Of a stretch of DNA of 64,000 bases, positions 3,348 through 34,320 are shown piece by piece. The stretch lies in contig DASXAQ010000103.1 in assembly GCA_036406615.1 (NCBI GenBank), positions 4,574 through 68,573 on the forward strand, written 5' to 3'. Both the position numbers and the translations under genes were made by a program. This DNA is from Actinomycetota bacterium (GTDB lineage Bacteria; Actinomycetota; UBA4738). Under the pieces are notes generated by a model. It worked only from the letters and a program-made list of their open reading frames with translations. It was not told where the DNA came from and ran no database searches. Numbering within the stretch: position 1 is the first letter of the stretch; the number at the start of each line of letters is the position of its first letter.

Positions 3348-3893
3348 ATGTCGCGGATCGGCAAGCAGCCCATCGAGATCCCCTCCGGCGTGGAGGTGAC
3401 GATCGACGGCACGCGCGTGGCCGTGAAGGGCCCGCGCGGCTCGCTGGAGCGCACCCTGCATGCGGACATGATCGTGCGCCGCGAGGACGGGACCGTGGTG
3501 GTGGAGCGCCCGAGCGACGAGCGGCTGCACCGCTCCCTGCACGGCCTCACCCGCACGCTCGTGGCCAACATGGTCCAGGGCGTGACCGACGGGTACGAGA
3601 AGCGGCTGGAGATCGTCGGCGTCGGCTACCGCGCGGCCATGAAGGGCAACGACCTCGAGCTGGCGCTGGGGTTCTCGCACCCAGTGAACGTCGCCGCACC
3701 GTCGGGCATCGAGTTCGAGGTGCCGGCCCCCAACCGCATCACGGTGCGGGGCATCGACAAGGAGCTGGTCGGCGAGGTCGCGGCGAACATCCGCAAGATC
3801 CGAAAGCCGGAGCCGTACAAGGGCAAGGGCATCCGCTACGAAGGGGAGTACGTGCGAAAGAAGGCCGGCAAGGCCGCCAAGGGAGCCGCGTGA
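3348..3893 (+). CDS. rplF: 50S ribosomal protein L6
   Basis: [37 protein letters not shown]... matches L6. Confidence 0.95.
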
Positions 3894-9629: not shown

Positions 9630-10559
9630 GTGCTCATCGTCGCAAGACCCGAGATCCAGGAAGAGTCCATCTCGCCCACGCGCTCGAAGTTCGTCGTCGA
9701 GCCCCTCGAGCCGGGCTTCGGCTACACGCTCGGCAACGCGCTTCGCAGGACCCTGCTGTCGTCGATCCCCGGCGCGGCCATCTCCTCGGTGAAGATCGAG
9801 GGTGTGCTGCACGAGTTCTCGACGATCCCGAAGGTCACCGAGGACGTCACCGACATCATCCTGAACCTCAAGCAGCTGGTGATCCGCTCCGAGGTGGACG
9901 AGCCCGTGTCGGCGTACCTGCGCGTCAAGGGCCCGGCCACCGTGACGGCCGGCGACATCCAGCCGCCCTCGGGCGTCGAGATCCTCAACGGGGACCTGCA
10001 CATCGCCTCGCTCGGCAAGGGCGCGAACCTCGAGCTCGAGCTGGTGGTCGAGCGCGGCGTCGGCTACGTCACGGCGGAGCGCAACAAGAACCCGCGCGAC
10101 CCGATCGGCGTGATCCCGGTCGACTCGATCTACTCGCCGGTGCGGCGCGTCACGTACGCCGTCGAGAACACGCGCGTCGAACAGATGACCGACCGCGACC
10201 GCCTGATCCTGGACGTCGAGACCAACGGCGCCATCTCGCCGAAGGAGGCCATGGCGTCGGCCGGTAACACGTTGGCCGAGCTGGTCAACCTGTTCTCGGA
10301 CCTGGCGGAGAGCGACCACGTGCGCGTCGGTCCGGCCGCCGTCGAGCCGCCGCAGGGCGATCTGGCGCTCACGATCGAGGAGCTCAACCTGTCGGTGCGC
10401 TCCTACAACTGCCTCAAGCGCGAGGGCATCAACACGGTCGGCGACCTCATCCAGAAGTCCGAGCAGGAACTGATGGACATCCGCAACTTCGGCCAGAAGT
10501 CCATCGACGAGGTGAAGGCCAAGCTCGACGAGCTCGGCCTCGGGCTGCGGGAGGACTAG
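9630..10559 (+). CDS. rpoA: DNA-directed RNA polymerase subunit alpha
   Basis: 309 aa with N-terminal domain [31 protein letters not shown] and C-terminal domain [20 protein letters not shown]. Confidence 0.95.
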
Positions 10560-10943
10560 ATGCCGAGGCCCCGACGAGGCCCGCGCCTGGGCAGCGGTCC
10601 CGCCCACGAGCGCCTGATGCTGGGAGGCCTTGCGGCGCAGCTGTTCACGCACGAGAAGGTCCGTACGACCGAGGCGAAGGCCAAGGCGCTGCGGCCGCTG
10701 GCGGAGCACCTGATCACGTTCGCGAAGCGCGCCCAGGGCGAGGACGCCAACTCGGTGCACCTTCGCCGCCAGGTGCTGAGGACGATCCCGGACCGCGACG
10801 TGGTCCACAAGCTGTTCTCGGAGATCGGCCCCCGTTACGAGGAGCGCGAGGGCGGCTACACGCGGATCCTGAAGCTCGGCCAGCGCAAGGGCGACGGGGC
10901 GCCGATGGCCATCATCGAGCTGCTCGGCGAGGACGAGGGCTAG
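10560..10943 (+). CDS. rplQ: 50S ribosomal protein L17
   Basis: [49 protein letters not shown] matches L17. Confidence 0.95.
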
Positions 10944-10955
10944 CCAGCGCCGAGG

Positions 10956-11702
10956 GTGACGGTCGTCAGGCTCCTGTTGGCGTACGACGGCACTGGGTTC
11001 CACGGCTGGGCGCGCCAGCCCCGCGTGCGCACCGTCCAGGGCGTCGTGGAGGATGCGCTCGCGCGCTTCCTCGGTGAGCGGCCCGTCCTGTCCGTCGCCG
11101 GTCGCACCGACGCCGGCGTCCATGCGGCCGGCCAGGTGGCGTCGTTCGTGTGGCCGGCTCCCGTCGACGTCGACCGTGTCCAGCGGGCGCTCAACGGCAT
11201 GCTGGGGCCGGAGGTGGCATGCCTTCGCGCGACACGGGCGGCCGACGGGTTCGACGCCCGCCGAAGCGCCACCGCCCGAGAGTACGTCTACCGCATCCAC
11301 ACGGGGGCGGCCGCAGACCCGTTCCGGTCCCGGTACGAGTGGCACCGCCCGGAACGGCTCGCCCTGGCGCCCATGCGGGCCGCGGCCCGCCACCTGGTGG
11401 GCGCGCACGACTTCCGGTCGTTCTGCCGGCTGCCGCCCGACGGCGGCGCGACCACCCGGACGCTGCGCACGCTGTCGGCCTCCGCGGCCGGCGAGCGCCT
11501 CGAGATCCGGGCCGTCGCCGACTCCTTCCTGCATCAGATGGTGCGCAGCCTCACCGGCACGCTGGTGGCGGCCGGGTCCGGGCGCCTGGACCCCGGGGAG
11601 GTGCCGCGGATCCTCGAGGCCCGGCGACGCGACGCCGCCGCACAGATGGCGCCTCCTCACGGGCTCACGTTGATGCGCGTCCGATACCGGGCGAACGGGT
11701 GA
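10956..11702 (+). CDS. truA: tRNA pseudouridine(38-40) synthase TruA
   Basis: LLAYDGTGFHGWARQP...VAGRTDAGVHAAGQV catalytic-Asp region. Follows rplQ as in Actinobacteria. Confidence 0.9.
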   Translation: MTVVRLLLAYDGTGFHGWARQPRVRTVQGVVEDALARFLGERPVLSVAGRTDAGVHAAGQVASFVWPAPVDVDRVQRALNGMLGPEVACLRATRAADGFDARRSATAREYVYRIHTGAAADPFRSRYEWHRPERLALAPMRAAARHLVGAHDFRSFCRLPPDGGATTRTLRTLSASAAGERLEIRAVADSFLHQMVRSLTGTLVAAGSGRLDPGEVPRILEARRRDAAAQMAPPHGLTLMRVRYRANG

Positions 11703-11880
11703 ACGATGGACGAACGTTGGTACTTTAGGCGCGAATTAGCCCGATCGCCCTATTGATGGTCCGCGCGGCGTCGACCATCCTTGGAGCGCGGCCCGGGCTG
11801 GGTGAATCGGGTCTAGACAGGATGGGCTAGCAGACCCTAGTCTGTTACCTCCGTCGGCGCGGGGCGCTGCTTTTGAACAC

Positions 11881-13323
11881 ATGCTGACCAGAGAACGCAC
11901 GACCGAGTTCGCTCCTGAGGAGCGCGTCCTTCCCCCTCGGGGAGGGACGGTTCAGCGTTTCGCCCGGTTGGCGGTCTGGGTGGCCGTCACCGACGTGCTC
12001 GCGCTCATCGCCGCCATGGGGATGGCCTACTGGGTCCGCTACGGGCTCAAGGCGCCGGGGTTCAAACCCGACCTCGTCGTGCTGCTGGCGCCGCTCATCT
12101 TCGTTCCCATCTACGCGGCACTGCGCCTCTACAGCCTGTCGCGGTTGTCCCCCGCGGAGGAGTTCCGGCGAATCCCGGCAGGCGTGAGCCTCGGCATCAG
12201 CGCCCTGGTCGTGCTGGGGTTCTGGTCGAAGGCCACGTATTCGCGCCTGTGGATCGGCATGGTCTGGGGATTCGCGCTGCTGTTGACGTTCATTGCGCGC
12301 AAGTGCTGGCACGTGTACATGGGCCGGGCCAAGGCGCGCGGGGCGCTGTCGTTCCGCACGCTGGTCGTTGGCTCGAACCAGGAGGCCCGCCGGGTCGCCC
12401 AGGCCATGAAGACCCCGGCCCTCGGCTTCGAGCCGGTCGGGTTCGTCACGCTGAAGTCCGACTATGTGCGGCTGGACGGGCTGCCGGTGTACGACTCCTG
12501 TTCGATCGAGGACGCCATCCGCGACTGCCACGCCGACTGCGTGTTCGTCGCGGCCAGCGACGTGACCTCGGAACAGATGGCCACGATCACCAAGGCCGCG
12601 CGCGTCGCGGGCGTCGAGATCCGCGTCTCGGCCAACCTGGCGGAGATCCTGTCGTCGCGGCTCACCGTGCAGACGATCGGCAACCTGCTCGCGCTGTCGC
12701 TTCGCCCGGTGAACCTCACCGGGCGCCAGGCGCTGCTCAAGCGGACGTTCGACGTCGTGGTGTCCAGCCTCGCGCTGGTCATCACCCTCCCGTTGTGGCT
12801 GGTGATCGCCATCGCGCTCAAGCTCGAGACGCACGGGCCGGTTCTGTACCGGCAGGAGCGCATCGGCGCGAAGGGCCGGCCGTTCCAGATCCTGAAGTTC
12901 CGAACGATGGTCGTCGGCGCCGACCGGATGCTGGACGAGCTGCAGCATCGCAACGAGGCCACCGGCCCGATGTTCAAGCTTCGCGACGACCCCCGCGTCA
13001 CCCGGGTCGGGCGGTACCTGCGCCGCTTCAGCCTGGACGAGCTGCCCCAGCTGGTGAACGTTCTGAAGGGAGAGATGAGCCTGGTGGGTCCGCGGCCGGC
13101 GCTGCCGAGCGAGGTCGCGGCCTACGAGGACTGGCACCTGGACCGGCTGGAGGTGCCGCCTGGCATCACCGGCCTGTGGCAGATCCGCGGCCGCAGCCAG
13201 CTCCCGTTCGACGCCTACGTGCGCCTGGACCTGTTCTACATCGAGAACTGGTCGATGGCCTACGACCTGTACATCCTGGCGGAGACGCTTCCGGCCGTGT
13301 TCACGCGCAAGGGCGCCTACTAG
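11881..13323 (+). CDS. Polyprenyl-phosphate hexose-1-phosphate transferase (WbaP/CpsE-like bacterial sugar transferase)
   Basis: N-terminal TM helices, a central CoA-binding-like domain, and a C-terminal sugar-transferase domain with RPGITGLWQI and ERIGAKGRPFQILKFRTM motifs. Confidence 0.85.
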   Translation: MLTRERTTEFAPEERVLPPRGGTVQRFARLAVWVAVTDVLALIAAMGMAYWVRYGLKAPGFKPDLVVLLAPLIFVPIYAALRLYSLSRLSPAEEFRRIPAGVSLGISALVVLGFWSKATYSRLWIGMVWGFALLLTFIARKCWHVYMGRAKARGALSFRTLVVGSNQEARRVAQAMKTPALGFEPVGFVTLKSDYVRLDGLPVYDSCSIEDAIRDCHADCVFVAASDVTSEQMATITKAARVAGVEIRVSANLAEILSSRLTVQTIGNLLALSLRPVNLTGRQALLKRTFDVVVSSLALVITLPLWLVIAIALKLETHGPVLYRQERIGAKGRPFQILKFRTMVVGADRMLDELQHRNEATGPMFKLRDDPRVTRVGRYLRRFSLDELPQLVNVLKGEMSLVGPRPALPSEVAAYEDWHLDRLEVPPGITGLWQIRGRSQLPFDAYVRLDLFYIENWSMAYDLYILAETLPAVFTRKGAY

Positions 13324-13479
13324 GGGTCTCCGCCGCCCGCCGGGGCAGCCCGGGACCGGGTCCGACCAGCGGGAATCTAGTATCCTTCCCGGGCTCTCCG
13401 CGTACGGATCCGGGCGTCAGCGCGTCCCGACCAGTCGCCGGCGAGCCGCCGAGACCCTGGCCAGTCCGAAGAGACACCG

Positions 13480-14277
13480 ATGAAGACTTACGCCCCGAAG
13501 CCCGCCGACATCGAGCGCGGGTGGTACGTGGTCGACGCCGACGGCGTCGTCCTCGGCCGCCTGGCATCCGAGGTCGCCAAGATCCTTCGCGGCAAGCACA
13601 AGCCCATCTACGCTCCACACGCCGACACCGGCGACCACGTGATCGTGGTCAACGCGTCCGGGATCCGGCTGACCGGCGGCAAGGAGACGAAGAAGGTCTA
13701 CTCGCGCCACTCGGGCTATCCGGGCGGGCTGACGCAGGTGGACTACGGGCGACTGATGTCCGAGCGCCCGGCCGTGGCCGTCGAGCGTGCGGTCCGCGGC
13801 ATGCTCCCCAAGAACCGCCTCGGCCGCAAGATGCTCGGCAAGCTCTCGGTGTACGAGGGCGCCGAGCACCGGCACCAGGCGCAGAAGCCGAAGCCGCTGG
13901 CGCTCGGTGAGGTGCCGCCCTGGACGGGCCTGCCGGTTCCCGCGCCCAAGCCCGAGCCGAAGCCGAAGGCCGAGGCGCCGCGCCGTCGCGGCGCGGCCAA
14001 GCCCGCCGGCGGCAAGCCCGCGAGCCGTTCCGGCTCCGCTGCGGGTGGACGAGCCGCGGGGGCCAGGGGCGGGACGAAGTCGGCGACGAGGAAGTCGGCG
14101 ACGCGAAAGTCGGCGACGCGAAAGTCGTCGACGCGGTCCGGCACATCGACGTCGGCGCGCCCGTCGACGGCGAAGAGCACCGCGAAGTCGAGCGCCGAGT
14201 CGACGGCGAAGTCGACCGCGAAGGCGAGCACGCGCACGCGGCGGACGAAGGCCGCGTCGAAGGCCGAACAGGAGTAG
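13480..14277 (+). CDS. rplM: 50S ribosomal protein L13 with a ~125-aa basic low-complexity C-terminal extension
   Basis: L13 core [42 protein letters not shown]...[10 protein letters not shown]. The tail carries [17 protein letters not shown] and [22 protein letters not shown] repeats. Confidence 0.92.
14075..14134 (+). repeat. Imperfect 15-bp tandem repeat (~4 copies, GAAGTCGGCGACGMG) inside the rplM tail
   Basis: Direct reading of gacgaagtcggcgacgaggaagtcggcgacgcgaaagtcggcgacgcgaaagtcgtcgacgcgg. It encodes the (T/A)RKSA peptide repeats. Confidence 0.7.
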
Positions 14278-20208: not shown

Positions 20209-21359
20209 CCGTGGGCGCGGCGCCCCCCTCGACGCACGCGCGCGGACGATTCCGCCCGACCGTCGCGACGATCGACCTGGATGCCGTTCGGCACAACGTG
20301 TCGCTGATCCGGCCGGCCGGGGCCGCGCTCATGGCGGTGGTCAAGGCCGACGGCTACGGGCACGGCGCGTCCGAGGTGGCGCGTGCCGCCCTGGAGGCCG
20401 GCGCCGCGTGGCTCGGCGTGGCACTGGTCGAGGAGGGCATTCGGCTTCGCGACTCCGGGATCGATGCGCCGGTCCTGGTGCTTGCCGAGTTTCCGCCGGG
20501 TTCGGAGGCCGACGCGCTCGCGGCCGGCCTGACGCCCACCGTGTACTCGCCGGAAGCGATCCGCGCGATCGCCGGCGCGCGCGGGTCGGCGCATCCCATC
20601 GGACCCGTCGGCGTCCACATCAAGGTGGATACCGGCATGCACCGCGTCGGCGCCGCGCCCGGCGATGCCGCCGGGCTCGTTCGCGCTGCCGTCGCTGCCG
20701 GGCTGAGCGTCGATGGGCTGTGGACGCACCTTGCCGTGGCCGACGAGGGCGGCGACCCGTACACGGACCGGCAGCTCGAGCGGTTCCGCGCCGCGGCGGC
20801 GGAGGTCGCGGCCGACGGCGTCCGTCCGATCCTGCACGCGGCGAACAGCGCCGCGCTCCTGTCGCGCCCCGACGCCCACTTCGATCTCGTTCGCGCCGGC
20901 ATCGCGGTGTACGGCCTGTCGCCGGATCCGGCGCTCGATTCCGGGGCAGCCGGCCTTCGCCCCGCCATGTCGTGGACGAGCCGCGTGTCGTTCGTGAAGC
21001 GCCTCGCGGGGGCCGAGGCCCTCGGCTACGGGCTTCGGTACCGCCTCGACCGCCGGGCGAACGTTGCGACGGTGCCCGTCGGGTACGGCGACGGGTACGC
21101 GCGCGCGCTGTCCGGCCGGGCTTCGGTGCTGATCCGTGGCCGCCGTCGCCCGGTCGCCGGCACGATCTCGATGGACCAGCTGCTCGTGGACGTCGGCGAC
21201 GATCCGGTGCGGGCCGGCGAGGAGGTCGTGCTGCTCGGCCGGCAGGGCGATGAGGAGATCACCGCCGGGGAGCTCGCGCGGCTCGCGGGCACGATCGCGT
21301 ACGAGGTGGTCTGCGCCGTCGGGCGACGCGTCCCCAGGGAGTACGTGCATGTCGGGTGA
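20205..21359 (+). CDS. alr: Alanine racemase
   Basis: AVVKADGYGHG PLP-lysine motif. GTG start overlaps the nnr stop. Confidence 0.9.
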   Translation: MTVGAAPPSTHARGRFRPTVATIDLDAVRHNVSLIRPAGAALMAVVKADGYGHGASEVARAALEAGAAWLGVALVEEGIRLRDSGIDAPVLVLAEFPPGSEADALAAGLTPTVYSPEAIRAIAGARGSAHPIGPVGVHIKVDTGMHRVGAAPGDAAGLVRAAVAAGLSVDGLWTHLAVADEGGDPYTDRQLERFRAAAAEVAADGVRPILHAANSAALLSRPDAHFDLVRAGIAVYGLSPDPALDSGAAGLRPAMSWTSRVSFVKRLAGAEALGYGLRYRLDRRANVATVPVGYGDGYARALSGRASVLIRGRRRPVAGTISMDQLLVDVGDDPVRAGEEVVLLGRQGDEEITAGELARLAGTIAYEVVCAVGRRVPREYVHVG

Positions 21360-22518
21360 CGCCCGGCCCACCGACGGCGCCGGAGCGAACGACGCGACGG
21401 GCCCGGCGCCCGGCCGCGGGGCGTGGGCCGCGCTCGCGAAACCCCTGGCCGCGGCCGCGCTCGCTCTCGGCGCCCTCGCGATCGGCGCCGCGGTCGAGCG
21501 CGCGGTCGTCCGGCGGGCGCGATCGGTGCCGGACCCGTCCGCGGGGGATCCGCTGGCCGAGCGGCCGGGCGCGAACCGGATGGTCGCCTCCTTCGACGGC
21601 ACGCGGCTGGCCGTCGCCCAGATCGGTCCCGGTGCGACGGAGACCGCGGGGCGCCGGGGTGGGAGCCGCACGTCCGAGCCCACGCTGGTGTTCCTCCACG
21701 GCTTCAGCCTGGACGTCGCCGCGTGGCACTACCAGTGGACGCACTTCTCCGAACGCTACCGCTGCGTGCTGTACGACGCGCGCGGGCACGGCGACAGCGA
21801 ACGCGCGGCGAGCGGCGACTACTCCGTCGAGGCGCTCGGCCGCGACCTGCTGGCGGTGATGGACGCCGCGTGCGGCGACGCGCCGGCCGTGCTGATCGGC
21901 CACAGCATGGGCGGCATGACGATCCTGTCGCTTGCGGCGGTGCGCCCCGAAGCGTTCGGCGATCGGATCGCCGGCGTCGTGCTCGCCGACACGGCCGCCA
22001 GCGACGTGGTGCAGGAAGGCGCGGGCGGGATGCTCGCGCGACTCGAGGCGGCGCTGCGCCCGTCGGTGCGAGCCCTCGCCGGTGACCGCGCGCGTGCGGA
22101 GCGGGTGCGCACGCTCGCCGCCGCGCGCCGCGCGGACCTGGCGTTCCTGGTCGCGCGCGCGACGAACTTCGCGCCGGGCGCGCCGCCGTCGCTCGTCGAC
22201 CACGTCGTGCGCGCGGCGCTGGCCGCCGACGTGGAGATCTGGCCCAAGCTGCTGCCGGGCCTGGTGGCCGTCGACCTTCGCCCGGCGCTGCGGGACGTGC
22301 GCGTGCCGGCGCTGGTCGTCGCGGGGGCGCGGGATCGGATGACGTCGTCGAGGTCGGCCGTCGCGCTGGCCGGGGACCTTCCGGACGCGCGGGCGGTGAT
22401 CCTGGACGGCGCGGGTCACGCCGCGCCGCTGGAGCAGCCGGCGGCGTTCAACGACGAGGTCGGCCGCTTCCTGGATGGGCTCGCGCAGCGGCGCGGGGCG
22501 CGGCGGCGGGCCGGATGA
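21349..22518 (+). CDS. Alpha/beta-hydrolase fold protein with an N-terminal membrane anchor
   Basis: LVFLHGFSLD and IGHSMGG nucleophile-elbow motif, plus C-terminal DGAGHAAPLEQP. Confidence 0.75.
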   Translation: MSGDARPTDGAGANDATGPAPGRGAWAALAKPLAAAALALGALAIGAAVERAVVRRARSVPDPSAGDPLAERPGANRMVASFDGTRLAVAQIGPGATETAGRRGGSRTSEPTLVFLHGFSLDVAAWHYQWTHFSERYRCVLYDARGHGDSERAASGDYSVEALGRDLLAVMDAACGDAPAVLIGHSMGGMTILSLAAVRPEAFGDRIAGVVLADTAASDVVQEGAGGMLARLEAALRPSVRALAGDRARAERVRTLAAARRADLAFLVARATNFAPGAPPSLVDHVVRAALAADVEIWPKLLPGLVAVDLRPALRDVRVPALVVAGARDRMTSSRSAVALAGDLPDARAVILDGAGHAAPLEQPAAFNDEVGRFLDGLAQRRGARRRAG

Positions 22519-23468
22519 TCACGCGCGTCCCGGGGATCCGTGTGGGCCACTGGACAGACTTGGCCGGCCTGACGGGATGCACCGTGGTGCTGACCCCCCC
22601 GGGCACCGTGGGTTCCGGCGAGGTCCGCGGCGGAGCGCCGGGCACGCGCGAGACCGACCTGCTCCGGCCGGGCACGCTGGTGCAGGAGGTGAACGCCGTC
22701 CTGCTCACGGGCGGCAGCGCGTTCGGCCTGGCCGCCGCCGACGGCGTGATGTCGTACCTCGAATCCCGCGGCGAGGGCTACGACGCGGGCGTGGCGCGCG
22801 TGCCGATCGTTCCCGCGGCGGTGCTGTTCGACCTGGACGTGGGCGACCCGGCGGCCAGGCCGGGTGCCGAGGACGGCCGCGCGGCGTGCGAGGCCGCCGC
22901 CGACGGTGACGTCGCCGAGGGCAACGTGGGGGCCGGGACCGGCGCGACGGTGGCCAAGCTCAACGGCCGCGACGGGGCGTTGAAGGGCGGGATCGGCTCC
23001 GCATCGGCCGAGGCCGGCGGGCTGATCGTCGGCGCGATCGCCGCCGTGAACGCCCTCGGCGAGATCGTGGACGAGGACGGCTCGACGCTGGCCGCCTCCC
23101 GGATCCCCGCGCCGGCCAACGACGCCGTCCCGTCGACGAGCGAGGCATCGCCGCCGGGCGACCAGCCGCCGACCGCCGGGACGAACACGACCCTGGTCGT
23201 CGTGGCGACGAACGCCCGGCTCGGCAAGGAGCGCGCACACCTGCTCTGCCTCGCGGCGCACGATGGCCTGGCCGCCGCCATCCGCCCGGCGCATACAATC
23301 TGGGACGGCGACACGGCCTTCGCGCTCGCGACGGGTCAGATCGACGCGGACCAGCGTGCGGTCGAGGCGCTGGCGGTCGACGCCGTCGGGGACGCCATCC
23401 GGCGGGCGGTGCTCGCCGCGACGGGCGTACCGGGCTTCCCCTCGGCACGGGAGGTGGCAGGAGCATGA
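22515..23468 (+). CDS. P1/S58-family peptidase (DmpA/L-aminopeptidase-like)
   Basis: GIRVGHWTD...GCTVVL...VLLTGGSAFGL and TNTTLVVVATNA motifs typical of DmpA/OAT-fold peptidases. Confidence 0.7.
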   Translation: MITRVPGIRVGHWTDLAGLTGCTVVLTPPGTVGSGEVRGGAPGTRETDLLRPGTLVQEVNAVLLTGGSAFGLAAADGVMSYLESRGEGYDAGVARVPIVPAAVLFDLDVGDPAARPGAEDGRAACEAAADGDVAEGNVGAGTGATVAKLNGRDGALKGGIGSASAEAGGLIVGAIAAVNALGEIVDEDGSTLAASRIPAPANDAVPSTSEASPPGDQPPTAGTNTTLVVVATNARLGKERAHLLCLAAHDGLAAAIRPAHTIWDGDTAFALATGQIDADQRAVEALAVDAVGDAIRRAVLAATGVPGFPSAREVAGA

Positions 23469-24076
23469 CCAATGTGGTCGCGACGCTTGAGGAGGTCGGG
23501 GAGCAGGCCGCGACGTGCACGCGGTGCCGCTTGGCGCAGGGCCGCACCCAGGTGGTGTTCGGCACGGGGAGCCCCGACGCCGACATCATGTTCATCGGCG
23601 AGGGCCCCGGCTATCACGAGGACAAGCAGGGCGAGCCGTTCGTCGGGGCCGCCGGTCAGTTGCTGACGAAGCTGCTCGCCGGCGTGGGCCTGTCGCGCGG
23701 CGACGTGTACATCGCGAACGTCGTCAAGTGCCGGCCGCCGGGCAACCGCGATCCGCTGCCCGACGAGATCGAATCCTGCACGCCGTGGCTGCAGGCGCAG
23801 ATCGAGCACATCCGCCCGCGCGTGATCGTGACGCTGGGCAACTTCGCGACCCGGTTCGTCCTCGGCAGGCAGGTCTCGATCAGCCGCGTGCGCGGCGAGC
23901 GGTTCGAGATCGACGGCCGCACGGTGGTCCCCACCTTCCACCCTGCGGCGATCCTGCACGGCGGGGGGGAGTCCAGTGCGCAGATGCAGTCGCTCAAGGG
24001 TGACTTCGAGCTCATCAAGCGGATCGCGGACGAGCCGCCGCCGCCCGAGCCCGAGGAGCAGCTCGGGCTGTTCTGA
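23465..24076 (+). CDS. udg: Uracil-DNA glycosylase family 4
   Basis: CTRCRL...VFGTGSPDADIMFIGEGPGYHEDKQGEPFVGAAGQLL...HPAAILHGG motifs. Confidence 0.88.
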   Translation: MTNVVATLEEVGEQAATCTRCRLAQGRTQVVFGTGSPDADIMFIGEGPGYHEDKQGEPFVGAAGQLLTKLLAGVGLSRGDVYIANVVKCRPPGNRDPLPDEIESCTPWLQAQIEHIRPRVIVTLGNFATRFVLGRQVSISRVRGERFEIDGRTVVPTFHPAAILHGGGESSAQMQSLKGDFELIKRIADEPPPPEPEEQLGLF

Positions 24077-25842: not shown

Positions 25843-26847
25843 GTGCGAATCCTGGGCATCGAGACCTCCTGTGACGAGACGGCCGTCGCGGTGGTGCAGG
25901 ACGGGCGCACCGTGCTGTCGAACCTCATCGCGAGCCAGGCGCACCTGCACGAGCGTTTCGGCGGCGTCGTGCCCGAGGTCGCGTCCCGCGCGCACCTCGA
26001 GAACATCAACCCGCTGATCGACCTGGCGCTTGACGCGGCCGGCTGCGGGCTGGGCGACGTCGACGCGGTGGCGGTCACCGTAGGACCGGGGCTGGTCGGC
26101 GCGCTACTGGTGGGGATGGCTGCCGCGAAGGCCCTGGCGCTCGGCCTCGGCGTCCCGTTCGTCGGCGTGAACCACCTCGAGGGACACATCTACGCGAACG
26201 TGATCGAGCACGGTCCGTTCGACGAGCCGTACGTCGCGTTCCTGGTCTCCGGCGGCCATACGATGCTGGTGTACGTCCCGCGCCCGCACGCGTACGAGCT
26301 CCTCGGCCAGACGCTCGACGACGCCGCGGGCGAGGCGTTCGACAAGATCGCGCGCTTCCTCGGGCTCGGCTTCCCCGGCGGTCCGGCCCTGGACGCGCTG
26401 GCGCGCAAGGGGAATCCGTCGGCCGTGCGGTTCCCCCGCGCGCTGAACGAACCCGGCTCGTACGACTTCTCCCTGTCGGGGCTGAAGACCGCGGTCGTGC
26501 GGCACGTGAAGGCCGAGCGCGCGCGGGGCGAGCGGACGTCCGACGAGGACCTGGCGGCGTCGTTCCAGGAGGCGGTTGTCGAAGTCCAGGTCGACAAGAC
26601 GATGGCAGCCGCGCTGGACCGGGGCGTGCGCACGATCGTGCTGGGCGGCGGCGTCGTTGCCAACACGCGGCTTCGCGAGCTGATGGCCGAGCGCGCACGC
26701 GACGGCGGAATGCGGCTGATGATCCCGCCGACGGACCTGTGCACCGACAACGCGGCGATGATCGCGGCGGCCGGCTACTACCGGCTGGCGGCCGGGGAAC
26801 GCACGCCGCTGTCGGTCGGCGCGAACCCGTCGCTGGCGCTGGCATGA
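25843..26847 (+). CDS. tsaD: tRNA N6-adenosine threonylcarbamoyltransferase TsaD
   Basis: MRILGIETSCDETAVAV...GVNHLEGH...SGGVVAN Kae1/Gcp motifs. Confidence 0.93.
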   Translation: MRILGIETSCDETAVAVVQDGRTVLSNLIASQAHLHERFGGVVPEVASRAHLENINPLIDLALDAAGCGLGDVDAVAVTVGPGLVGALLVGMAAAKALALGLGVPFVGVNHLEGHIYANVIEHGPFDEPYVAFLVSGGHTMLVYVPRPHAYELLGQTLDDAAGEAFDKIARFLGLGFPGGPALDALARKGNPSAVRFPRALNEPGSYDFSLSGLKTAVVRHVKAERARGERTSDEDLAASFQEAVVEVQVDKTMAAALDRGVRTIVLGGGVVANTRLRELMAERARDGGMRLMIPPTDLCTDNAAMIAAAGYYRLAAGERTPLSVGANPSLALA

Positions 26848-27782
26848 GCACCTACCTGGTCACCGGGGGCGCCGGGTTCATCGGGTCGCACCTGTGCGAC
26901 CGGCTGCTGGCCGAAGGCAAGCGGGTCGTGGCGGTCGACGACCTGTCGGGCGGGCGGATCGCGAACCTGGTGGAGTCGCGCGCGTACGGACAGCAGTTCA
27001 CGTTCTACAACGTGGACATCCGCGCCGAGGGCCTGGTCACGATCTTCGAACGGCACCAACCCGAGGTCGTCGTGCACCTGGCCGCGCGGCGGGGCGACCG
27101 CGGCGCGCCCGACCCGATGGCCGACGCCAGCGTCGGCGTGCTCGGACTGCTGAACGTGCTGGAGTGCGCCGTCGCGACCGGCGCGCGCAAGGCCGTGTAC
27201 GCGTCGACGGCGGCCGTGTACGGCGACCAGCGGCGCCTTCCGGCCAAGGAGTCGGTGATCGGCTCCTCGCGCCCGCTCACCCCGGCCGCCATCGCGGCGA
27301 AGCTCGCGGCCGACTACCTCCGGTTCTACGAGCGGTACCGGGGGATCGAGCAGACCGCGCTGGTGCTCGGCAGCGTGTACGGCCCGCGGCAGGCTGCGGA
27401 CGAAGGCCGCGGGGTGGTCGGGGTCATGGCGGCGAAGATGCTGTCCGGCGAGCAGCCGGTCATCTTCGGCGACGGGAACCAGACCCGGGACTTCGTCTTC
27501 CTGGACGATGCGGTCCACGCGTTCTCGCTCGCCGCGGACCGCGGGGCCGGGCGCGTGATCAACATCGGTACCTCGGTCGAGACCAGCGTCAACGGCGTGT
27601 TTCGCATGCTGGCCGAGATCGTCGGGTACCGTGGGCAGCCGGTCTTCGGGCCGCCGGGAGTCGGCGAGGTGCGGCGAAGCCTGCTCGACAACGAGCTCGC
27701 CGAGCGAGAGCTCGGCTGGAAGCCGTGGACGCACCTCGAGGACGGGCTGGCCGAGACCGTCGCGGCGATGCGCCACGGCTGA
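26844..27782 (+). CDS. NAD-dependent epimerase/dehydratase (short-chain dehydrogenase/reductase (SDR), UDP-hexose 4-epimerase-like)
   Basis: YLVTGGAGFIGSHL Rossmann motif and YASTAAVYGD. ATG overlaps the tsaD stop (ATGA). Confidence 0.8.
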   Translation: MSTYLVTGGAGFIGSHLCDRLLAEGKRVVAVDDLSGGRIANLVESRAYGQQFTFYNVDIRAEGLVTIFERHQPEVVVHLAARRGDRGAPDPMADASVGVLGLLNVLECAVATGARKAVYASTAAVYGDQRRLPAKESVIGSSRPLTPAAIAAKLAADYLRFYERYRGIEQTALVLGSVYGPRQAADEGRGVVGVMAAKMLSGEQPVIFGDGNQTRDFVFLDDAVHAFSLAADRGAGRVINIGTSVETSVNGVFRMLAEIVGYRGQPVFGPPGVGEVRRSLLDNELAERELGWKPWTHLEDGLAETVAAMRHG

Positions 27783-27845
27783 GCCCCGCCGGTCAAGGGC
27801 GGGAGCCCCTCGGTCGATGCTCCTGGTGAGAGGGGTTGTGTCGCC

Positions 27846-28286
27846 ATGCCAACCGAGTCCTGCGCTTCCTGCGGCGCCCGGCTCTCGCCGGACGTCGACT
27901 GGTGCGGCCAGTGCTACCAGCCGGTGCGAACCGCCCCGGCGCCCGCGCCGGCCGCGACCGCTGTGCGCCCCGCTGCGCCCGCTCCGGACGTCAAGGCGTC
28001 GGCCCAGCCGGCAACCGCGGCCGGTGACGCCGGGGTCGACCCGGCGGTCATGGCCCGGTTCGACCTCGAGCTGGCCAGCCTGCGGACGCGCTCCGGGCGG
28101 GTGTCGAAGGCCGAGATGGGCGGCGTGGTCGCGGGGATCGTCGGCCTGGCGCTGGCGGCGGAGGTCGCCCTTACGGTGATCCACGGCCTGGGCGGCGTTC
28201 TGGTGGCCATGTGCGCCCTGGGATGCACAGTCGTTCCGCTGCGGGCCATGTGGCGCAAGGCCAAGGCCGCCGGGGTGACCGGCTGA
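27846..28286 (+). CDS. Hypothetical protein with an N-terminal zinc ribbon and a C-terminal transmembrane segment
   Basis: CASCGARLSPDVDWCGQCYQP (CxxC...CxxC), an Ala/Pro-rich linker, and a hydrophobic C-terminal stretch. Confidence 0.55.
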   Translation: MPTESCASCGARLSPDVDWCGQCYQPVRTAPAPAPAATAVRPAAPAPDVKASAQPATAAGDAGVDPAVMARFDLELASLRTRSGRVSKAEMGGVVAGIVGLALAAEVALTVIHGLGGVLVAMCALGCTVVPLRAMWRKAKAAGVTG

Positions 28287-28378
28287 GCCCGGACCGGCGA
28301 GCCTGTACACTCTCGGGACGCGCCGAAAGGTTCGCGACCAGGCCAAATGGACGGGGTCGGGTATGGGCCTTGGGGGGA

Positions 28379-28407
28379 TTGACGCTTTTCGACTTGCGTG
28401 TGATAGT
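28379..28407 (+). promoter_or_regulatory. Putative sigma-70-type promoter TTGACG-N17-GATAGT (TG-extended) upstream of the radical-SAM gene
   Basis: Pattern match within the 173-bp lower-GC intergenic region. It lies ~50 bp upstream of the ATG at 28460. Confidence 0.35.
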
Positions 28408-28459
28408 CCCGTAAAGGTGACGAATCCCGCATTTATGCGGGCAGAGAGGGGCCAAATCC

Positions 28460-30172
28460 ATGATGGAGCTTGATCTCCTTCTCGTGCACGCTCCAAGCGT
28501 GTACGACTTCCGGGATCGCGACGACATCCTTTTCGCGTATCTGAGCAACTCCGACAGCGTCCACGTCAGCCCGATCTTCGAGATGCCGCCGGTCGGCGTG
28601 TTCGCGATCGAGCAGCACGTCCGCAAGCAGGGGTTCCGCTCGGCGTTCCTCAACGTGGCCTCCTCGATGCTCAAGCGCCCGGACCTGGACGTGGAGGAGC
28701 TGTTCGCCAACATCAAGACGAAGGTCATCGGGTTCGACCTGCACTGGCTGATCCATTGTCAGGGCGGCCTGGCCCTGTCCAAGCTGTTCAAGGAGATGCA
28801 CCCCGAGACGAAGGTCCTGTTCGGCGGCATCGCCTCGACGTACCACAACGAAGAGCTGTTCCAGTACCCCTGGGTCGACTACGTGATCCGCGGCTACGAC
28901 ACGCTGTACCCGGTCGAGCTGCTGATGAAGTCCGAGAACCGGCCCGAGGCGCTCGAGGAGATCCCCAACCTGACGTGGCGCCGGGGCAGCGAGATCGTCT
29001 CGAACCCGCTGACGTACCTGCCGCGCGTGTTCAGCGCCGCGGTGGACTGGTCGCAGGTGTTCAACCCGGACCGGTCGAACATGACGCCGTACAACCTGGT
29101 GATCCCGCAGGCGGGCTGCGAGTACAACTGCAAGTGGTGCGGCGGCAGCCGGTACTTCTTCGGCAAGTACATGGGCATCTCCAAGCCCTCGCGCGTGCAC
29201 AAGAGCCCGGAGCTGCTCCAGATGGAGCTCAGCAGCATCGCCAAGGCGAACACCGACAACCAGACGGTGACGATGATCGACTTCTGGCACGAGTACGAGG
29301 AGCTGTTCACCGTCGCCGAGGACGTGTTCTTCGACGACAAGATCAAGTCCGTGCATTTCAGCCTGCACCGGCTGCCGAAGATCGAGAAGGCGCAGCGCAT
29401 GGGCGACGGCATCAAGGCGGTGTTCGAGTTGTCGCCGGACTCCCACAACGTGGAGGTGGCGCGCGCCAGCGGCCGCGGCCTCTACACGATGGAGGAGATG
29501 GAGGAGTTCATCGACGCGCTGATCGACAAGGTCTACTCGTTCGAGATCTATTTCATGATCGGGCTGCCGAAGCAGACGCCCGAGCTCGTCATGGAGAACG
29601 TGGAGTACTGCGAGCACCTGCTCGAGAAGTACAAGGGCAAGCGCGTCGTCCCGTTCATGTGCCCGATGCTGCCGTTCCTTGACCCCGGCAGCGAGATCTT
29701 CGACAACCCGGAGAAGAACGGCTACCGCCTGTTCCACCGCACGCTCGAGGAGCACCGGCAGGCGCTGGGCGAGATCAACTGGCGCGACCGGCTCAACTAC
29801 GAGACCGAGTGGATGACCCGCGACCAGCTGGTCGAGGTCTCCTACAAGGCCGTGCGCCAGCTGACGCTGGCCAAGGCCAAGGCGGGGAAGCTCCCGCGGG
29901 GCATCGCCCAGGGCATCGTGGCGCTGATCGACCAGACCCACGAGCTGCTGGACCGGATCGACGCCGTGCAGACGATGCCGGAGGGGCCGGAGAAGGAGGC
30001 GGAGAGCGCGCGGATCCGCGAGGAGGTTCGCGAGTACAACGCGAACCAGTTCCGTTCGATCCGCAGCCAGCAGCGCCCGACCGACGCCGGCTTCGCCCAG
30101 GAGCAGTGGTTCGACACCGAGGGCCTGATCGACCAGATCCTGGGCCGCTCGCTCGAGCCCGCCTCCGCCTGA
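28460..30172 (+). CDS. Cobalamin-binding-domain radical SAM enzyme (class B), substrate unknown
   Basis: N-terminal Rossmann-like B12-binding region (LLLVHAPSVYDF...KVIGFDLHW...KVLFGGIASTY), radical-SAM CEYNCKWC (CxxxCxxC) motif, and a ~200-aa C-terminal extension. GC is roughly 62-64% against a window average near 70%. Confidence 0.8.
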   Translation: MMELDLLLVHAPSVYDFRDRDDILFAYLSNSDSVHVSPIFEMPPVGVFAIEQHVRKQGFRSAFLNVASSMLKRPDLDVEELFANIKTKVIGFDLHWLIHCQGGLALSKLFKEMHPETKVLFGGIASTYHNEELFQYPWVDYVIRGYDTLYPVELLMKSENRPEALEEIPNLTWRRGSEIVSNPLTYLPRVFSAAVDWSQVFNPDRSNMTPYNLVIPQAGCEYNCKWCGGSRYFFGKYMGISKPSRVHKSPELLQMELSSIAKANTDNQTVTMIDFWHEYEELFTVAEDVFFDDKIKSVHFSLHRLPKIEKAQRMGDGIKAVFELSPDSHNVEVARASGRGLYTMEEMEEFIDALIDKVYSFEIYFMIGLPKQTPELVMENVEYCEHLLEKYKGKRVVPFMCPMLPFLDPGSEIFDNPEKNGYRLFHRTLEEHRQALGEINWRDRLNYETEWMTRDQLVEVSYKAVRQLTLAKAKAGKLPRGIAQGIVALIDQTHELLDRIDAVQTMPEGPEKEAESARIREEVREYNANQFRSIRSQQRPTDAGFAQEQWFDTEGLIDQILGRSLEPASA

Positions 30173-30232
30173 TCCCGGCCGGGACGGCGCACCTCGAAAC
30201 CGGGGCCGATCCCCGGCCGCTTCGCCTCGCCG

Positions 30233-30261
30233 TTGACCACTTGCGGTCTCGCCGCTAGACT
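30233..30261 (+). promoter_or_regulatory. groES promoter TTGACC-N17-TAGACT
   Basis: Near-consensus -35 and -10 hexamers with 17-bp spacing, immediately 5' of CIRCE. Confidence 0.5.
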
Positions 30262-30262
30262 G

Positions 30263-30289
30263 TTAGCACTCGCATCGGTCGAGTGCTAA
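30263..30289 (+). promoter_or_regulatory. CIRCE operator (HrcA binding site) TTAGCACTC-N9-GAGTGCTAA
   Basis: Perfect match to the CIRCE consensus inverted repeat, ~55 bp upstream of groES. Confidence 0.92.
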
Positions 30290-30343
30290 CAGCGGCTGAA
30301 GCCCGATGGCGGGCTCAGCCGCCCACCTGGGTCAGAAGGAGGA

Positions 30344-32333
<1,990 letters not shown>

Positions 32334-32402: not shown

Positions 32403-33173
32403 TTGCGGCCCAGGGGTATGCTCGCGGACCGGGGAGGCGAGGCCATGGAGGTCGCGAAAGGCGTTCACCGCCTGACGGGCGGCATCGTCAACTTCTACCT
32501 GGTGGAAGAGGCCGGAAAGCTGACGATCGTCGACGCCGGCGCGCCGACGGACTGGGGGCTGCTCGCCGGAGCGATCGCCCGCATGGGGCTGTCGCCCACG
32601 GACCTTGAGGCGGTGCTGCTGACGCACGCGCACAGCGACCACACGGGCTTCGCGGAACGCGCCCGCGCGTCGGGGTCGCCCGTCTGGGTCCACGAGGCGG
32701 ACGCCGCGGTGGCCAAGGGGGCGAAGCCGCCGAAGAACGACGGCGCCGCGTGGCGCTACCTGTGGCGCCTCGAGTTCTACCGCACGCTGATCTCACTGGC
32801 CCGGCGCGGAGCCACGAAGATCGTGCCGGTCCTGGAGGTCTCGACGTATCGCGACGGGGAGACGATCGAGGTCCCGGGCAGCCCGCGGGTCGTGCATGTG
32901 CCCGGGCACACGCCGGGCATGTGCGCGCTCCTGCTCGAGGACCGGCGCGCGCTGCTCAGCGGCGACGCGGTCGTCACCCGCAACCCGCTGACCGGCCGGA
33001 CCGGACCGCAGATCGCTCCGTCCGGCCTCAACCGCGACACGCCGCTGGCGCTGCGTTCGCTCGACCGGCTGGAGGGCCTCGGGGCCGACGTGCTGTTGCC
33101 CGGACACGGCGAGCCGTGGGAGGGCAGCCTCGGCGACGCGGTGCGCGAGGCCCGGGCCGCCGGCACCTCCTGA
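32403..33173 (+). CDS. MBL-fold metallo-hydrolase
   Basis: LLTHAHSDHTG HxHxDH motif and a later PGHTPG. The start may instead be the ATG at 32445. Confidence 0.75.
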   Translation: MRPRGMLADRGGEAMEVAKGVHRLTGGIVNFYLVEEAGKLTIVDAGAPTDWGLLAGAIARMGLSPTDLEAVLLTHAHSDHTGFAERARASGSPVWVHEADAAVAKGAKPPKNDGAAWRYLWRLEFYRTLISLARRGATKIVPVLEVSTYRDGETIEVPGSPRVVHVPGHTPGMCALLLEDRRALLSGDAVVTRNPLTGRTGPQIAPSGLNRDTPLALRSLDRLEGLGADVLLPGHGEPWEGSLGDAVREARAAGTS

Positions 33174-33177
33174 GGCC

Positions 33178-34320
33178 TCAGCCGAGCGCCGCCGCGCCGG
33201 GCGGCGCCGGCGGGAACGACACCTCGACGCCTTCGGCGGCAAGGTCGTCCAGGAACGCCTCGGCCGCCACCGACGTCTCCGGTGGATGCACGCCGGGCTG
33301 GATGCGTCCCGCCGCCTGCCACCGCGCCATGGTCGCGATGGGGATGGCCGTGCCGAACGCCCCCGCGGACAGTCCCTCCGGCGAGGGACGGAGCAGGGCG
33401 CGCCCAACGAACGTCGTCCCACGGCCGTCGCGCAGGCCGCGGACCACCGCGTCGATGCACTCGACGTCCTGCGGCGCGTCGCCGGCGGATGGAAGCCGGT
33501 TCAGGAGTGCGATCAGCAGGTCCCGCGGCGCGACGGCGCCGCCGGGAAGCTCGACCGGGTCCGTGCCGGCCAGGCCGACGGACACCAGCAGCCGGAACCC
33601 CCGGGCGATCGCTTCGGGGAGCGCCAGTCGCCAGCGCACGTCCCGCACGCCCTCGATCGTGGCCGGCAGCGTCGCCGGCTCGGAGTGCAGCGTGTAGAAG
33701 GCCTCCTGCGCCCCGATCGGCTCGGGGAACTCGTAGCGGACGGTGCCGGACGCGGCCGGGACCTCGCGCATCGTTCCGTCCTCGTAGACCATCGCCGGCA
33801 ACGTGAACTCGTCCAGGACCGTCTCGGCGGAGTACGGCAGCCCGAACTCGCCGCTCCGGTCGACCGCCCCGTCGAGCATGTCGACGGACGTCACCGCGTC
33901 CAGGCGGTCGGCGCCGGCGCGCGCGAGCAGGTTGGTGATCCCGGGGGCGCTCCCGATGCCGAGCACCGCCGACAGGCCGGCCTCCCGGAACTTCGCGTTC
34001 AGCTCCAGCTGCCGGCGCGTCGTGTGGAACAGCCCGCCAAGGTCGGCGTAGTGGCAGCCGGCTGTCAGCGCCGCCTCCATCACCGGCAGGTTCAGCCGGT
34101 AGGGGATGCAGGCCGCGACCGACTGCACGCCCGACAGGGCATCGCGCAGCGATCCCGATCCGATGTCGACGCCGCGATGGTCCGCGCCGATCTCGGCCGC
34201 GACCGTTCGGGCGCGGTCTGCGTCGATGTCCAGCACCAGGATCTCGACGTCGTCGTGGCGCCCGAGGAGGCGCGCGGCCGCGCTCCCCATGGCGCCTGCA
34301 CCCAGCACCCCGATCCGCAT
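33178..34320 (-). CDS. Saccharopine dehydrogenase-like NAD(P)-binding oxidoreductase
   Basis: MRIGVLGAGAMGSAAARLL Rossmann motif. Overall architecture matches a saccharopine dehydrogenase NADP-binding plus C-terminal domain. Confidence 0.65.
   Translation of the reverse strand: MRIGVLGAGAMGSAAARLLGRHDDVEILVLDIDADRARTVAAEIGADHRGVDIGSGSLRDALSGVQSVAACIPYRLNLPVMEAALTAGCHYADLGGLFHTTRRQLELNAKFREAGLSAVLGIGSAPGITNLLARAGADRLDAVTSVDMLDGAVDRSGEFGLPYSAETVLDEFTLPAMVYEDGTMREVPAASGTVRYEFPEPIGAQEAFYTLHSEPATLPATIEGVRDVRWRLALPEAIARGFRLLVSVGLAGTDPVELPGGAVAPRDLLIALLNRLPSAGDAPQDVECIDAVVRGLRDGRGTTFVGRALLRPSPEGLSAGAFGTAIPIATMARWQAAGRIQPGVHPPETSVAAEAFLDDLAAEGVEVSFPPAPPGAAALG

Follow-up and report, generated by a model that had tools for sequence, protein, structure and literature searches.

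This study concerns a 64,000-nucleotide stretch of DNA from an Actinomycetota bacterium (contig DASXAQ010000103.1), hereafter called the window, and in particular a gene on its plus strand (28460-30172) that encodes a class-B radical S-adenosylmethionine (SAM) protein of 570 residues. The main finding is that this protein, named by NCBI as a 'cobalamin-dependent protein', belongs on sequence evidence to the CloN6/CouN6 family, of which it is a divergent member and which is itself biochemically unexplored. An earlier interpretation of this DNA, made from the letters alone and called here the sequence-only reading, had described the gene as one for an enzyme of unknown substrate. That description was too pessimistic, since a BLASTP match to P0265, a protein introduced below, allows the family to be named and suggests a putative substrate for the window organism. 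We lean, if only slightly, towards the view that the protein would be a CloN6-type C-methyltransferase acting on a carrier-protein-bound pyrrole-2-carboxyl, or closely similar, thioester, with its partner genes elsewhere in the genome.

The window protein is predicted to be a cobalamin-dependent radical SAM protein that binds both cobalamin and an iron-sulfur cluster, in agreement with the sequence-only reading, which had based its class-B assignment on a B12-binding domain and a CxxxCxxC motif. Residues 40-148 (28577-28903) match the Rossmann-type B12-binding domain PF02310 with 47.7 bits against a cut-off of 32.1, and the radical SAM domain PF04055 is matched with 29.7 bits, barely over its cut-off of 29.5. 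The [4Fe-4S]/SAM motif, Cys220-x3-Cys224-x2-Cys227, is encoded at 29117-29140 (GCEYNCKWCGGS), and its three cysteines are invariant in an alignment of 24 sequences and in 43 homologues linked to the biosynthetic cassette described below. An AlphaFold2 model of the protein has a pLDDT of 89 and a pTM of 0.89, and within this model residues 40-148 form alternating strands and helices with pLDDT above 90. When the model was compared with PDB by Foldseek, the top matches were all class-B enzymes (E 4e-16 to 2e-11, TM-scores 0.48-0.56), namely TokK (7KDX, E 4e-16), TsrM (6WTE/6WTF), CysS (9N1B), MgmA (9CCB), AprD4 (6FD2) and OxsB (5UL3). The modelled protein appears to share with these enzymes the Rossmann cobalamin domain and the partial TIM-barrel radical SAM fold; however, its identity to them is only 12-16%, and a sequence search of PDB, with a single sequence or a profile, detected TokK alone (E 0.006). 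By Foldseek and sequence search, no solved structure in PDB represents its family. The gene calls of JGI start the protein 13 codons downstream, at 28499, which gives 557 residues. The start at 28460, as used by NCBI, is favoured because D5, L8, H10, A11 and P12 are conserved family-wide and a predicted ribosome-binding site, GAGAGGGG, lies about 6 nt 5' of this ATG.

The family assignment comes mainly from P0265, a protein recovered by a search from a Streptomyces family member in order to test the label 'CloN6', which JGI gives to many metagenome homologues and which a KEGG Orthology (KO)-based annotation also gives to a protein identical to ours. The 90% cluster of P0265 holds cloN6 (AAN65235.1) and couN6 (UniRef Q9F8U1), and its locus is the clorobiocin cluster, with CloN2-N3-N4-N5-N6-N7, a halogenase, a TylF-type methyltransferase (CloP), a CloQ prenyltransferase fold and CloR. 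BLASTP aligns the window protein with P0265 over 556 residues at 39% identity and 58% positives (E 6e-145). The window protein has the same length and domain order as CloN6 and CouN6, with a B12-binding domain, a radical SAM barrel and a helical C-terminal domain, and it shares with them the CxxxCxxC motif as well as HAPSVYDFR..., DLHW, SPDSH/SPESH and CPM(L/V)PFLDPG. The best NCBIfam match of the protein is TIGR04190 (B12_SAM_Ta0216), with 369.5 bits and an E of 3e-110, and the alignment runs nearly from end to end (residues 5-502 against model positions 1-508 of 554), as if the protein were an archaeal-type equivalog of that model and not a member of the CloN6 family. However, this score lies below the 500-bit cut-off, and eight other family members, which include CloN6-clade and cassette-linked proteins, score 336-390 bits on the same model; none of the nine members tested reaches any NCBIfam cut-off. 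TIGR04190 is best regarded as a sister family, because true CloN6-clade proteins give the same sub-threshold scores, and with the strong BLASTP match to the CloN6 cluster representative also speaking against it, we give the archaeal-type alternative a very slight chance. Our literature search found nothing on TIGR04190 or Ta0216. The models for BchE, HpnR, KedN5, the TIGR03975 C-methyltransferase of ribosomally synthesized and post-translationally modified peptides, ApyD and the P-methyltransferase Sden_1168 gave 16-45 bits against cut-offs of 251-750, and the matches to these named class-B models cover the B12 domain and the cluster region only.

Within the family, a neighbour-joining tree, built with neither bootstrap nor outgroup, places the window protein among cassette-linked members in a group (group A) that is sister to the group containing CloN6 (group B). 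The members of group A are 48-84% identical to the window protein and come from Sorangium, Polyangiaceae and metagenome-assembled genomes (MAGs) of Acidobacteriota, Planctomycetota, Gemmatimonadota, Bacillota and 'Rickettsiales', and those of group B, 38-42% identical to it, come from Streptomyces, Streptosporangiaceae, Chloroflexota and Myxococcus. Cassette-linked members occur in both groups. The family is highly conserved across phyla (mean column identity 56%), and of the 99 residues that never vary among the 43 cassette-linked proteins the window protein has kept all but two; these changes, which leave 97 residues intact, are A107S and T380N and are both common to it and its homologue at locus L001. 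The likeness to CloN6 and CouN6 extends to genomic context, as relatives of the window protein in its subclade carry a cassette of the CloN3/N4/N5 type. Unlike CloN6, the window protein belongs to a group found mostly in MAGs of Myxococcota, Acidobacteriota, Planctomycetota, Gemmatimonadota and Bacillota, has no N3/N4/N5/N7 cassette or aminocoumarin genes in its 64 kb, and is encoded in a housekeeping setting, with the t6A operon on one side and groESL on the other, by a gene that has its own promoter-like site. Reviews published in 2022 and 2026 describe CloN6 and CouN6 as Csp2 methyltransferases that are known from knockouts and have not been studied in vitro or structurally, and propose for them a TsrM-like polar route. 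The comparison brings to light a subclade of CloN6-like proteins from outside Actinomycetota, often tied to proline-to-pyrrole cassettes.

The link to such cassettes was found by comparing gene neighbourhoods at 80 genome loci and on metagenome contigs, with the neighbouring open reading frames (ORFs) clustered all-against-all. Two neighbours of the radical SAM gene recur, an acyl-CoA-dehydrogenase-like gene of about 381 codons and one for a stand-alone adenylation enzyme (about 520 residues); both are found no more than 10 kb from it at 43 of the 85 family loci. The dehydrogenases beside group-A members have as their best models PigA and RedW, the L-prolyl-peptidyl carrier protein (PCP) dehydrogenases, with 334-455 bits, compared with 428 and 375 for the true CloN3. 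Where core motifs provide an anchor, the specificity positions of the adenylation domains are the same as in CloN4 (D-L-L/F..L-A-L-V-C), and small PP-binding carrier proteins occur in the cassette loci. A PigA/RedW-like dehydrogenase, a PCP and CloN4-like specificity together indicate that the predicted family-wide context is the conversion of proline to pyrrolyl-2-carboxyl-S-PCP. At L002 the adenylation enzyme, dehydrogenase and PCP are found with a methyltransferase and an N-acetyltransferase, and at L004 and L005 the group-A copies lie among polyketide synthase and sugar genes.

Some group-A loci resemble polysaccharide or lipid-acylation loci. In two of them the CloN6-like gene is accompanied by genes for an adenylation enzyme, a dehydrogenase and a PCP. 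At L178 (1-21692) these lie in an exopolysaccharide-like locus of the PEP-CTERM type, together with GNVR, a tyrosine-kinase-like ATPase, a polysaccharide deacetylase, FemAB-like proteins, a glycosyltransferase and an asparagine synthase, and at L179 (10001-13093) the radical SAM gene is directly followed by genes for a PCP and an LpxL-like acyltransferase. These two contexts hint at pyrrole acylation of envelope polymers. We also observed that about 17 loci in MAGs of Streptosporangiaceae and other Actinomycetota (L043, L047, L048, L050, L053, L057, L058, L061, L066, L068-L073, L077, L080 and L082) share a conserved and apparently undescribed cluster. Its order, for example in L073 (86-10650), is a CloN6-like radical SAM protein, a cytochrome P450, a pyridoxal-phosphate-dependent decarboxylase of the DABA type, a MurT-like ligase, a GatD-like amidotransferase, a prolyl-PCP dehydrogenase and a proline adenylation enzyme.

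If the window protein acts in the way proposed for CloN6, a pyrrole methylase of antibiotic biosynthesis, its N-terminal Rossmann domain would hold cobalamin, and Cys220, Cys224 and Cys227 would hold the [4Fe-4S] cluster to which SAM binds. One SAM would methylate cob(I)alamin, from which the methyl group would then go to a carbon of the substrate. From homology and the family-wide linkage, the expected substrate would be a pyrrole-2-carboxyl thioester that is formed from L-proline and bound to a carrier protein, and the product a methylated pyrrole. A proline-to-pyrrole cassette, or some other source of a similar substrate, would then, we infer, be present elsewhere in the genome.

Several observations weigh against this CloN6-type role. 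When CloN1-5, CloN7 and the group-A cassette proteins were searched by tblastn against the 64-kb window, nothing was found below E 0.1, which bears out the earlier statement that the gene has no pathway partners nearby. The identity to CloN6 is only 39%, in a sister subclade whose placement comes from neighbour-joining with no bootstrap, and CloN6 itself, according to the reviews, has never been reconstituted. The gene also shows codon adaptation at the level of groEL, which is unusual for a tailoring enzyme of secondary metabolism. Moreover, two of its relatives are orphans too. The radical SAM gene at L001 (3680-5512), its closest homologue, is flanked by genes for a tetratricopeptide repeat protein, hypothetical proteins and a MatE transporter, and the Polyangiaceae copy at L177, 65% identical, is flanked by LigD, DNA ligase and RbfA. 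Since the copies at L001 and L177 are also orphans, the small clade that they form with the window protein may have a different substrate.

One may therefore imagine that the window and L001 proteins, and perhaps that of L177, have left the pyrrole pathway and now work as stand-alone enzymes on another substrate, perhaps a primary-metabolic or cell-envelope molecule. The missing partner genes, the contexts of L001 and L177 outside biosynthetic gene clusters, the separate promoter-like site, a synonymous codon usage equal to that of groES and groEL, the strong purifying selection and the two substitutions common to the window and L001 proteins would all fit such a change. However, nearly all family-invariant residues are kept, and the window protein is 61-66% identical to the cassette-linked proteins of L002, L010 and L178, and proteins so alike usually act on the same class of substrate. 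Tailoring genes are, furthermore, often unlinked in fragmented MAG data, and no alternative conserved neighbour was found among the orphan loci examined. We regard a change of substrate as unlikely, though worth keeping in mind. In its more specific form, in which the orphan clade (the window protein, that of L001 and possibly the Polyangiaceae copy) would be a constitutively well-expressed stand-alone B12/radical SAM enzyme acting on a cellular, non-natural-product substrate, the proposal seems to us rather improbable. Should orphan copies indeed have a new substrate, this would widen the reaction scope of a Csp2-methylase family that is mechanistically unexplored. In our judgement the balance still tilts gently to a CloN6-type methyltransferase.

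The orphan position of the gene would also be expected of a decaying, non-functional remnant of a lost biosynthetic cluster. However, the reading frame is full-length, the cluster and invariant motifs are kept, the gene outranks all others scored in the window in codon adaptation, and the sequence is identical in four samples. The comparison with L001 likewise speaks against decay. The two copies are 84% identical in amino acids and 80% in nucleotides, but they are only 45% identical at 4-fold degenerate sites, which indicates an old split under strong purifying selection and hence selection on the protein. Their similarity is restricted to the coding sequence and ends exactly at the ends of it; the L001 copy has a C-terminal extension of about 40 residues, downstream of which lies the MatE transporter gene. 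The catalytic core is predicted to be intact and the gene looks expressed, and we consider decay highly unlikely.

Another question is how the gene came to its present place. The sequence-only reading had noted that the radical SAM gene is less GC-rich than its neighbours and richer in Lys, Glu, Phe, Tyr and Asn, and our measurements confirm both observations: the GC content of the coding sequence is 0.644, compared with 0.70-0.77 for most genes of the window and about 0.72 for the neighbours (0.71 for the high-GC window as a whole), and each of these five amino acids is about twice as frequent as the window mean. What does not hold is the use of low GC as a sign of horizontal acquisition. The GC content at the first, second and third codon positions (GC1, GC2 and GC3) is 0.61, 0.35 and 0.97, and in a leave-one-out codon model conditional on amino acid, applied to 49 window genes, the synonymous codon usage of this gene is the most host-typical of all (z = +1.76). 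Its score groups with those of groES, groEL and the genes of the first 14 kb, which include putative ribosomal-protein and rpoA genes. Codon usage, for which the sequence-only reading had proposed a check by GC3 and codon z-scores, is thus native. With a GC3 of 0.97 and the top codon z-score, the low total GC of the gene is entirely due to its amino-acid sequence. The dip is, in fact, a family trait, as in 16 of 19 homologous loci the radical SAM gene lies 4-9 GC points under its neighbours with GC3 equal to theirs, the exceptions being L001, where the gene matches a 55%-GC host, L018 and L019. The genuine cloN6 has the same compositional signature, with low GC1 and GC2 and host-like GC3, and shows the dip as well (0.60 against 0.65). 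Presumably the composition of the family is unable to drift toward Ala, Gly, Arg and Pro. A dip of GC in a high-GC genome can therefore be an amino-acid effect of a family, and GC3 and codon usage need to be checked before transfer is inferred.

The comparison of the locus in relatives defines what is specific to this species. The relatives have TsaD proteins 68-81% identical to that of the window, and the closer ones were found by protein search; a TsaD scan of metagenomes gave, among the matches listed, mostly distant relatives (50-57% identity), and only L087 from it was used. L087 has the order tsaD-SDR-groES, where SDR denotes a gene for an extended short-chain dehydrogenase/reductase. 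In L171 a cupredoxin-like gene lies between the SDR gene and groES (cargo 5771-6421), and in L173 and L174 the order is tsaD-SDR-Rrf2-TauE, a gene for a 531-residue protein and groES (cargo 9966-13340 in L173). L175 has other genes after TauE (cargo 9966-13517), L176 has a minus-strand gene for a cyclic-nucleotide-binding protein between tsaD and groES (cargo 3452-3892), and in L172 tsaD is followed by a HATPase gene. Among the matches listed, more distant relatives have gaps of 0.1 to 9 kb between tsaD and groES. The radical SAM gene and the ORF that precedes it, which encodes a zinc-ribbon/transmembrane protein, are absent from all these relatives. The 531-residue protein of L173 and L174, which has no Pfam match, was considered as a radical SAM homologue and ruled out, as it is not homologous. 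In the window, the species-specific segment extends only from about 27.8 to 30.2 kb (a slot of about 27783-30232), and the arrangement is identical in four independent JGI samples of this species.

These results show that the interval between the tsaD-SDR pair and the groES promoter is a hypervariable slot for lineage-specific cargo, and they mark the junction of tsaD and groES as a hot spot of such cargo in an uncultured actinobacterial clade. The sequence-only reading was right that lineage-specific genes lie in this interval, which synteny in relatives establishes for the radical SAM gene and the zinc-ribbon ORF, and the three genes that it treated as one insertion are nowhere seen together in the relatives. 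The SDR gene, however, is no part of the insertion, since relatives without the radical SAM gene also keep it 3' of tsaD. As to mobility, no integrase, transposase or tRNA and no convincing flanking repeats were found around the slot, and a mobile-element signature was rejected, the only repeats being short, imperfect and judged to be chance at this GC. Among them are a 22-nt direct repeat pair at two stop codons and an 18-nt inverted pair (28274-28291 and 30310-30327, 89% complementary) that brackets the radical SAM gene, the groES promoter and CIRCE and is probably a chance occurrence. A defence island was likewise rejected, as PADLOC gave for the radical SAM protein only a 44-residue, 23-bit match to the candidate PDC-M51A and for the other two proteins nothing.

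Horizontal acquisition, as proposed before, finds support in phylogeny and not in composition. Homologues of the radical SAM protein in MAGs of Polyangiaceae, Acidobacteriota and Planctomycetota are 60-66% identical to it, and typical actinobacterial copies are 38-40% identical. A horizontal origin is suggested because the nearest homologues come from other phyla or, in the case of L001, from a 55%-GC contig, and the acquisition would be old because GC3 is host-like in both copies (0.97 in the window and 0.70 in L001) and their 4-fold sites are only 45% identical. We infer an ancient acquisition of the gene, followed by its complete amelioration. The total GC of the gene, the absence of it and the zinc-ribbon ORF from relatives and the homologues in other phyla could also be read as marks of a recent foreign island made up of the SDR, zinc-ribbon and radical SAM genes. 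However, host-like codon usage with no foreign signature, a GC dip that recurs in homologues from high-GC hosts including cloN6, 4-fold sites near saturation against the closest homologue, conservation of the SDR gene where the radical SAM gene is absent and the lack of any mobility gene or convincing repeat refute such an island both in its recency and as a three-gene unit, and we give it hardly any credence.

The SDR gene (26844-27782, plus strand) is annotated as NAD-dependent epimerase/dehydratase and matches PF01370 (5.8e-47) and PF16363 (1.6e-42). Its ATG overlaps the TGA of tsaD as ATGA, just as had been read from the sequence, and the gene is translationally coupled to tsaD through this overlap. 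Homologues with 59-65% identity lie directly 3' of tsaD in L087, L171 and L173, and the overlapping or abutting start is kept in these relatives without the radical SAM gene (L087, L171 and L173/174/175), and the SDR gene forms a conserved addition to the tsaD operon of this clade. Its protein has the NAD-binding GxxGxxG motif (TGGAGFIGS, residues 7-15) and reaches no NCBIfam equivalog, its best match being dTDP-glucose dehydratase with 130 bits against a 365-bit cut-off. We compared the tsaD-linked SDRs of the window, L087 (10999-11925), L171 (4795-5727) and L173 (9008-9940). In a six-sequence MAFFT alignment the catalytic Tyr of YxxxK is missing from the window protein, which has PAAIAAK where the dTDP-glucose dehydratase of the clorobiocin cluster has PYAAAK, and the position is Ile/Val or Ala in all four; the motif variants seen in the clade are PAAIAAK, PHGVAKK and PAAISKK. 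The Tyr-less protein is perhaps non-catalytic, or an SDR of an unusual kind, with a tie to the t6A operon. That it might be a partner of the radical SAM protein in a sugar pathway was considered and rejected, because relatives without the radical SAM gene keep it and its catalytic Tyr is absent.

The 146-residue zinc-ribbon/transmembrane ORF (27846-28286, plus strand) encodes an N-terminal CxxC-x12-CxxC zinc ribbon, an Ala/Pro-rich linker and two predicted C-terminal transmembrane helices. Its earlier description as a zinc-ribbon/transmembrane hypothetical was accurate: the CxxC...CxxC motif spans residues 6-23, and residues of about 89-136 are hydrophobic, with hydropathy above 1.6 and room for two helices. 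The GC3 of the ORF is 0.91, and no match was found in Pfam, NCBIfam or PADLOC. Its 90% cluster has three members, from the same MAG contig and from short JGI/Logan contigs, and it is missing from the tsaD-groES intervals of all relatives examined. It was considered as a conserved companion of the radical SAM gene and discarded, as no similar ORF adjoins any homologue; it is not a partner of that gene.

The radical SAM gene is preceded by a leader of 173 bp (28287-28459, plus strand), and inside this leader lies a promoter-like site at 28379-28407 (TTGACG-17-GATAGT with a TG extension), so both elements named in the sequence-only reading could be located. Over 4.2 kb, a promoter scan gave two sites of this kind where 0.3 were expected. 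A riboswitch or other structured leader was rejected, as no Rfam match was found at E<=1 across 25-33 kb and the leader fold is not more stable than shuffles (z = 0.23). On the other side of the gene, a short GC hairpin (CCGGGG-CCGAT-CCCCGG, 30200-30216, plus strand) lies 28 nt 3' of the stop codon, and the scan predicts no intrinsic terminator on the plus strand. As the hairpin has no U-tract, it is a weak terminator at best, and transcriptional read-through into groES is therefore possible. The groES promoter-like site (30233-30261, plus strand; TTGACC-17-TAGACT) is directly followed by the CIRCE operator (30263-30289, plus strand; TTAGCACTC-N9-GAGTGCTAA). The -35 and -10 elements and CIRCE are conserved in L087, L171, L173 and L176, where similarity begins at the -35, and this block (30233-30289) bounds the variable slot on the right.

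On the left the region is bounded by tsaD (25843-26847, plus strand; TIGR03723 431 bits, PF00814 5e-96), the final conserved gene of the tsaE-tsaB-rimI-tsaD operon, whose product is 100% identical to HEY1331966.1 of an 'Actinomycetota bacterium' MAG. The window is identical with a part of a 148.6-kb contig of this NCBI MAG, and the proteins of the region match its HEY1331966-71 with identical sequence, among them those of groES (30344-30655, plus strand; HEY1331970.1) and groEL (30714-32333, plus strand; HEY1331971.1), and PF00166 and PF00118 are recorded for the groES/groEL region on the identical contig L167. The gene order is YjeF, alpha/beta-hydrolase, S58 peptidase, UDG, tsaE, tsaB, rimI and tsaD, followed by the SDR gene, the zinc-ribbon/transmembrane ORF, the radical SAM gene, groES, groEL, a gene for a metallo-beta-lactamase-fold protein and, on the minus strand, a saccharopine dehydrogenase gene. 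The sequence-only reading had placed the three genes between tsaD and the CIRCE/groES promoter with all coordinates and motifs correct, but its conserved order beginning alr-tsaE does not apply here, as alr does not adjoin tsaE in the window or in the relatives. In this clade the two genes are separated by those for the alpha/beta-hydrolase, the S58 peptidase and the UDG-family glycosylase (21136-24076 in the window); the start of the hydrolase ORF at 21136 looks over-extended, its domain starting at residue 182. On the 3' side of groEL, the metallo-beta-lactamase-fold and saccharopine dehydrogenase genes (32403-34320) are missing in L171, where groEL is directly followed by a minus-strand ORF of 131 residues and a phosphodiesterase gene, which suggests a second variable slot after groEL.

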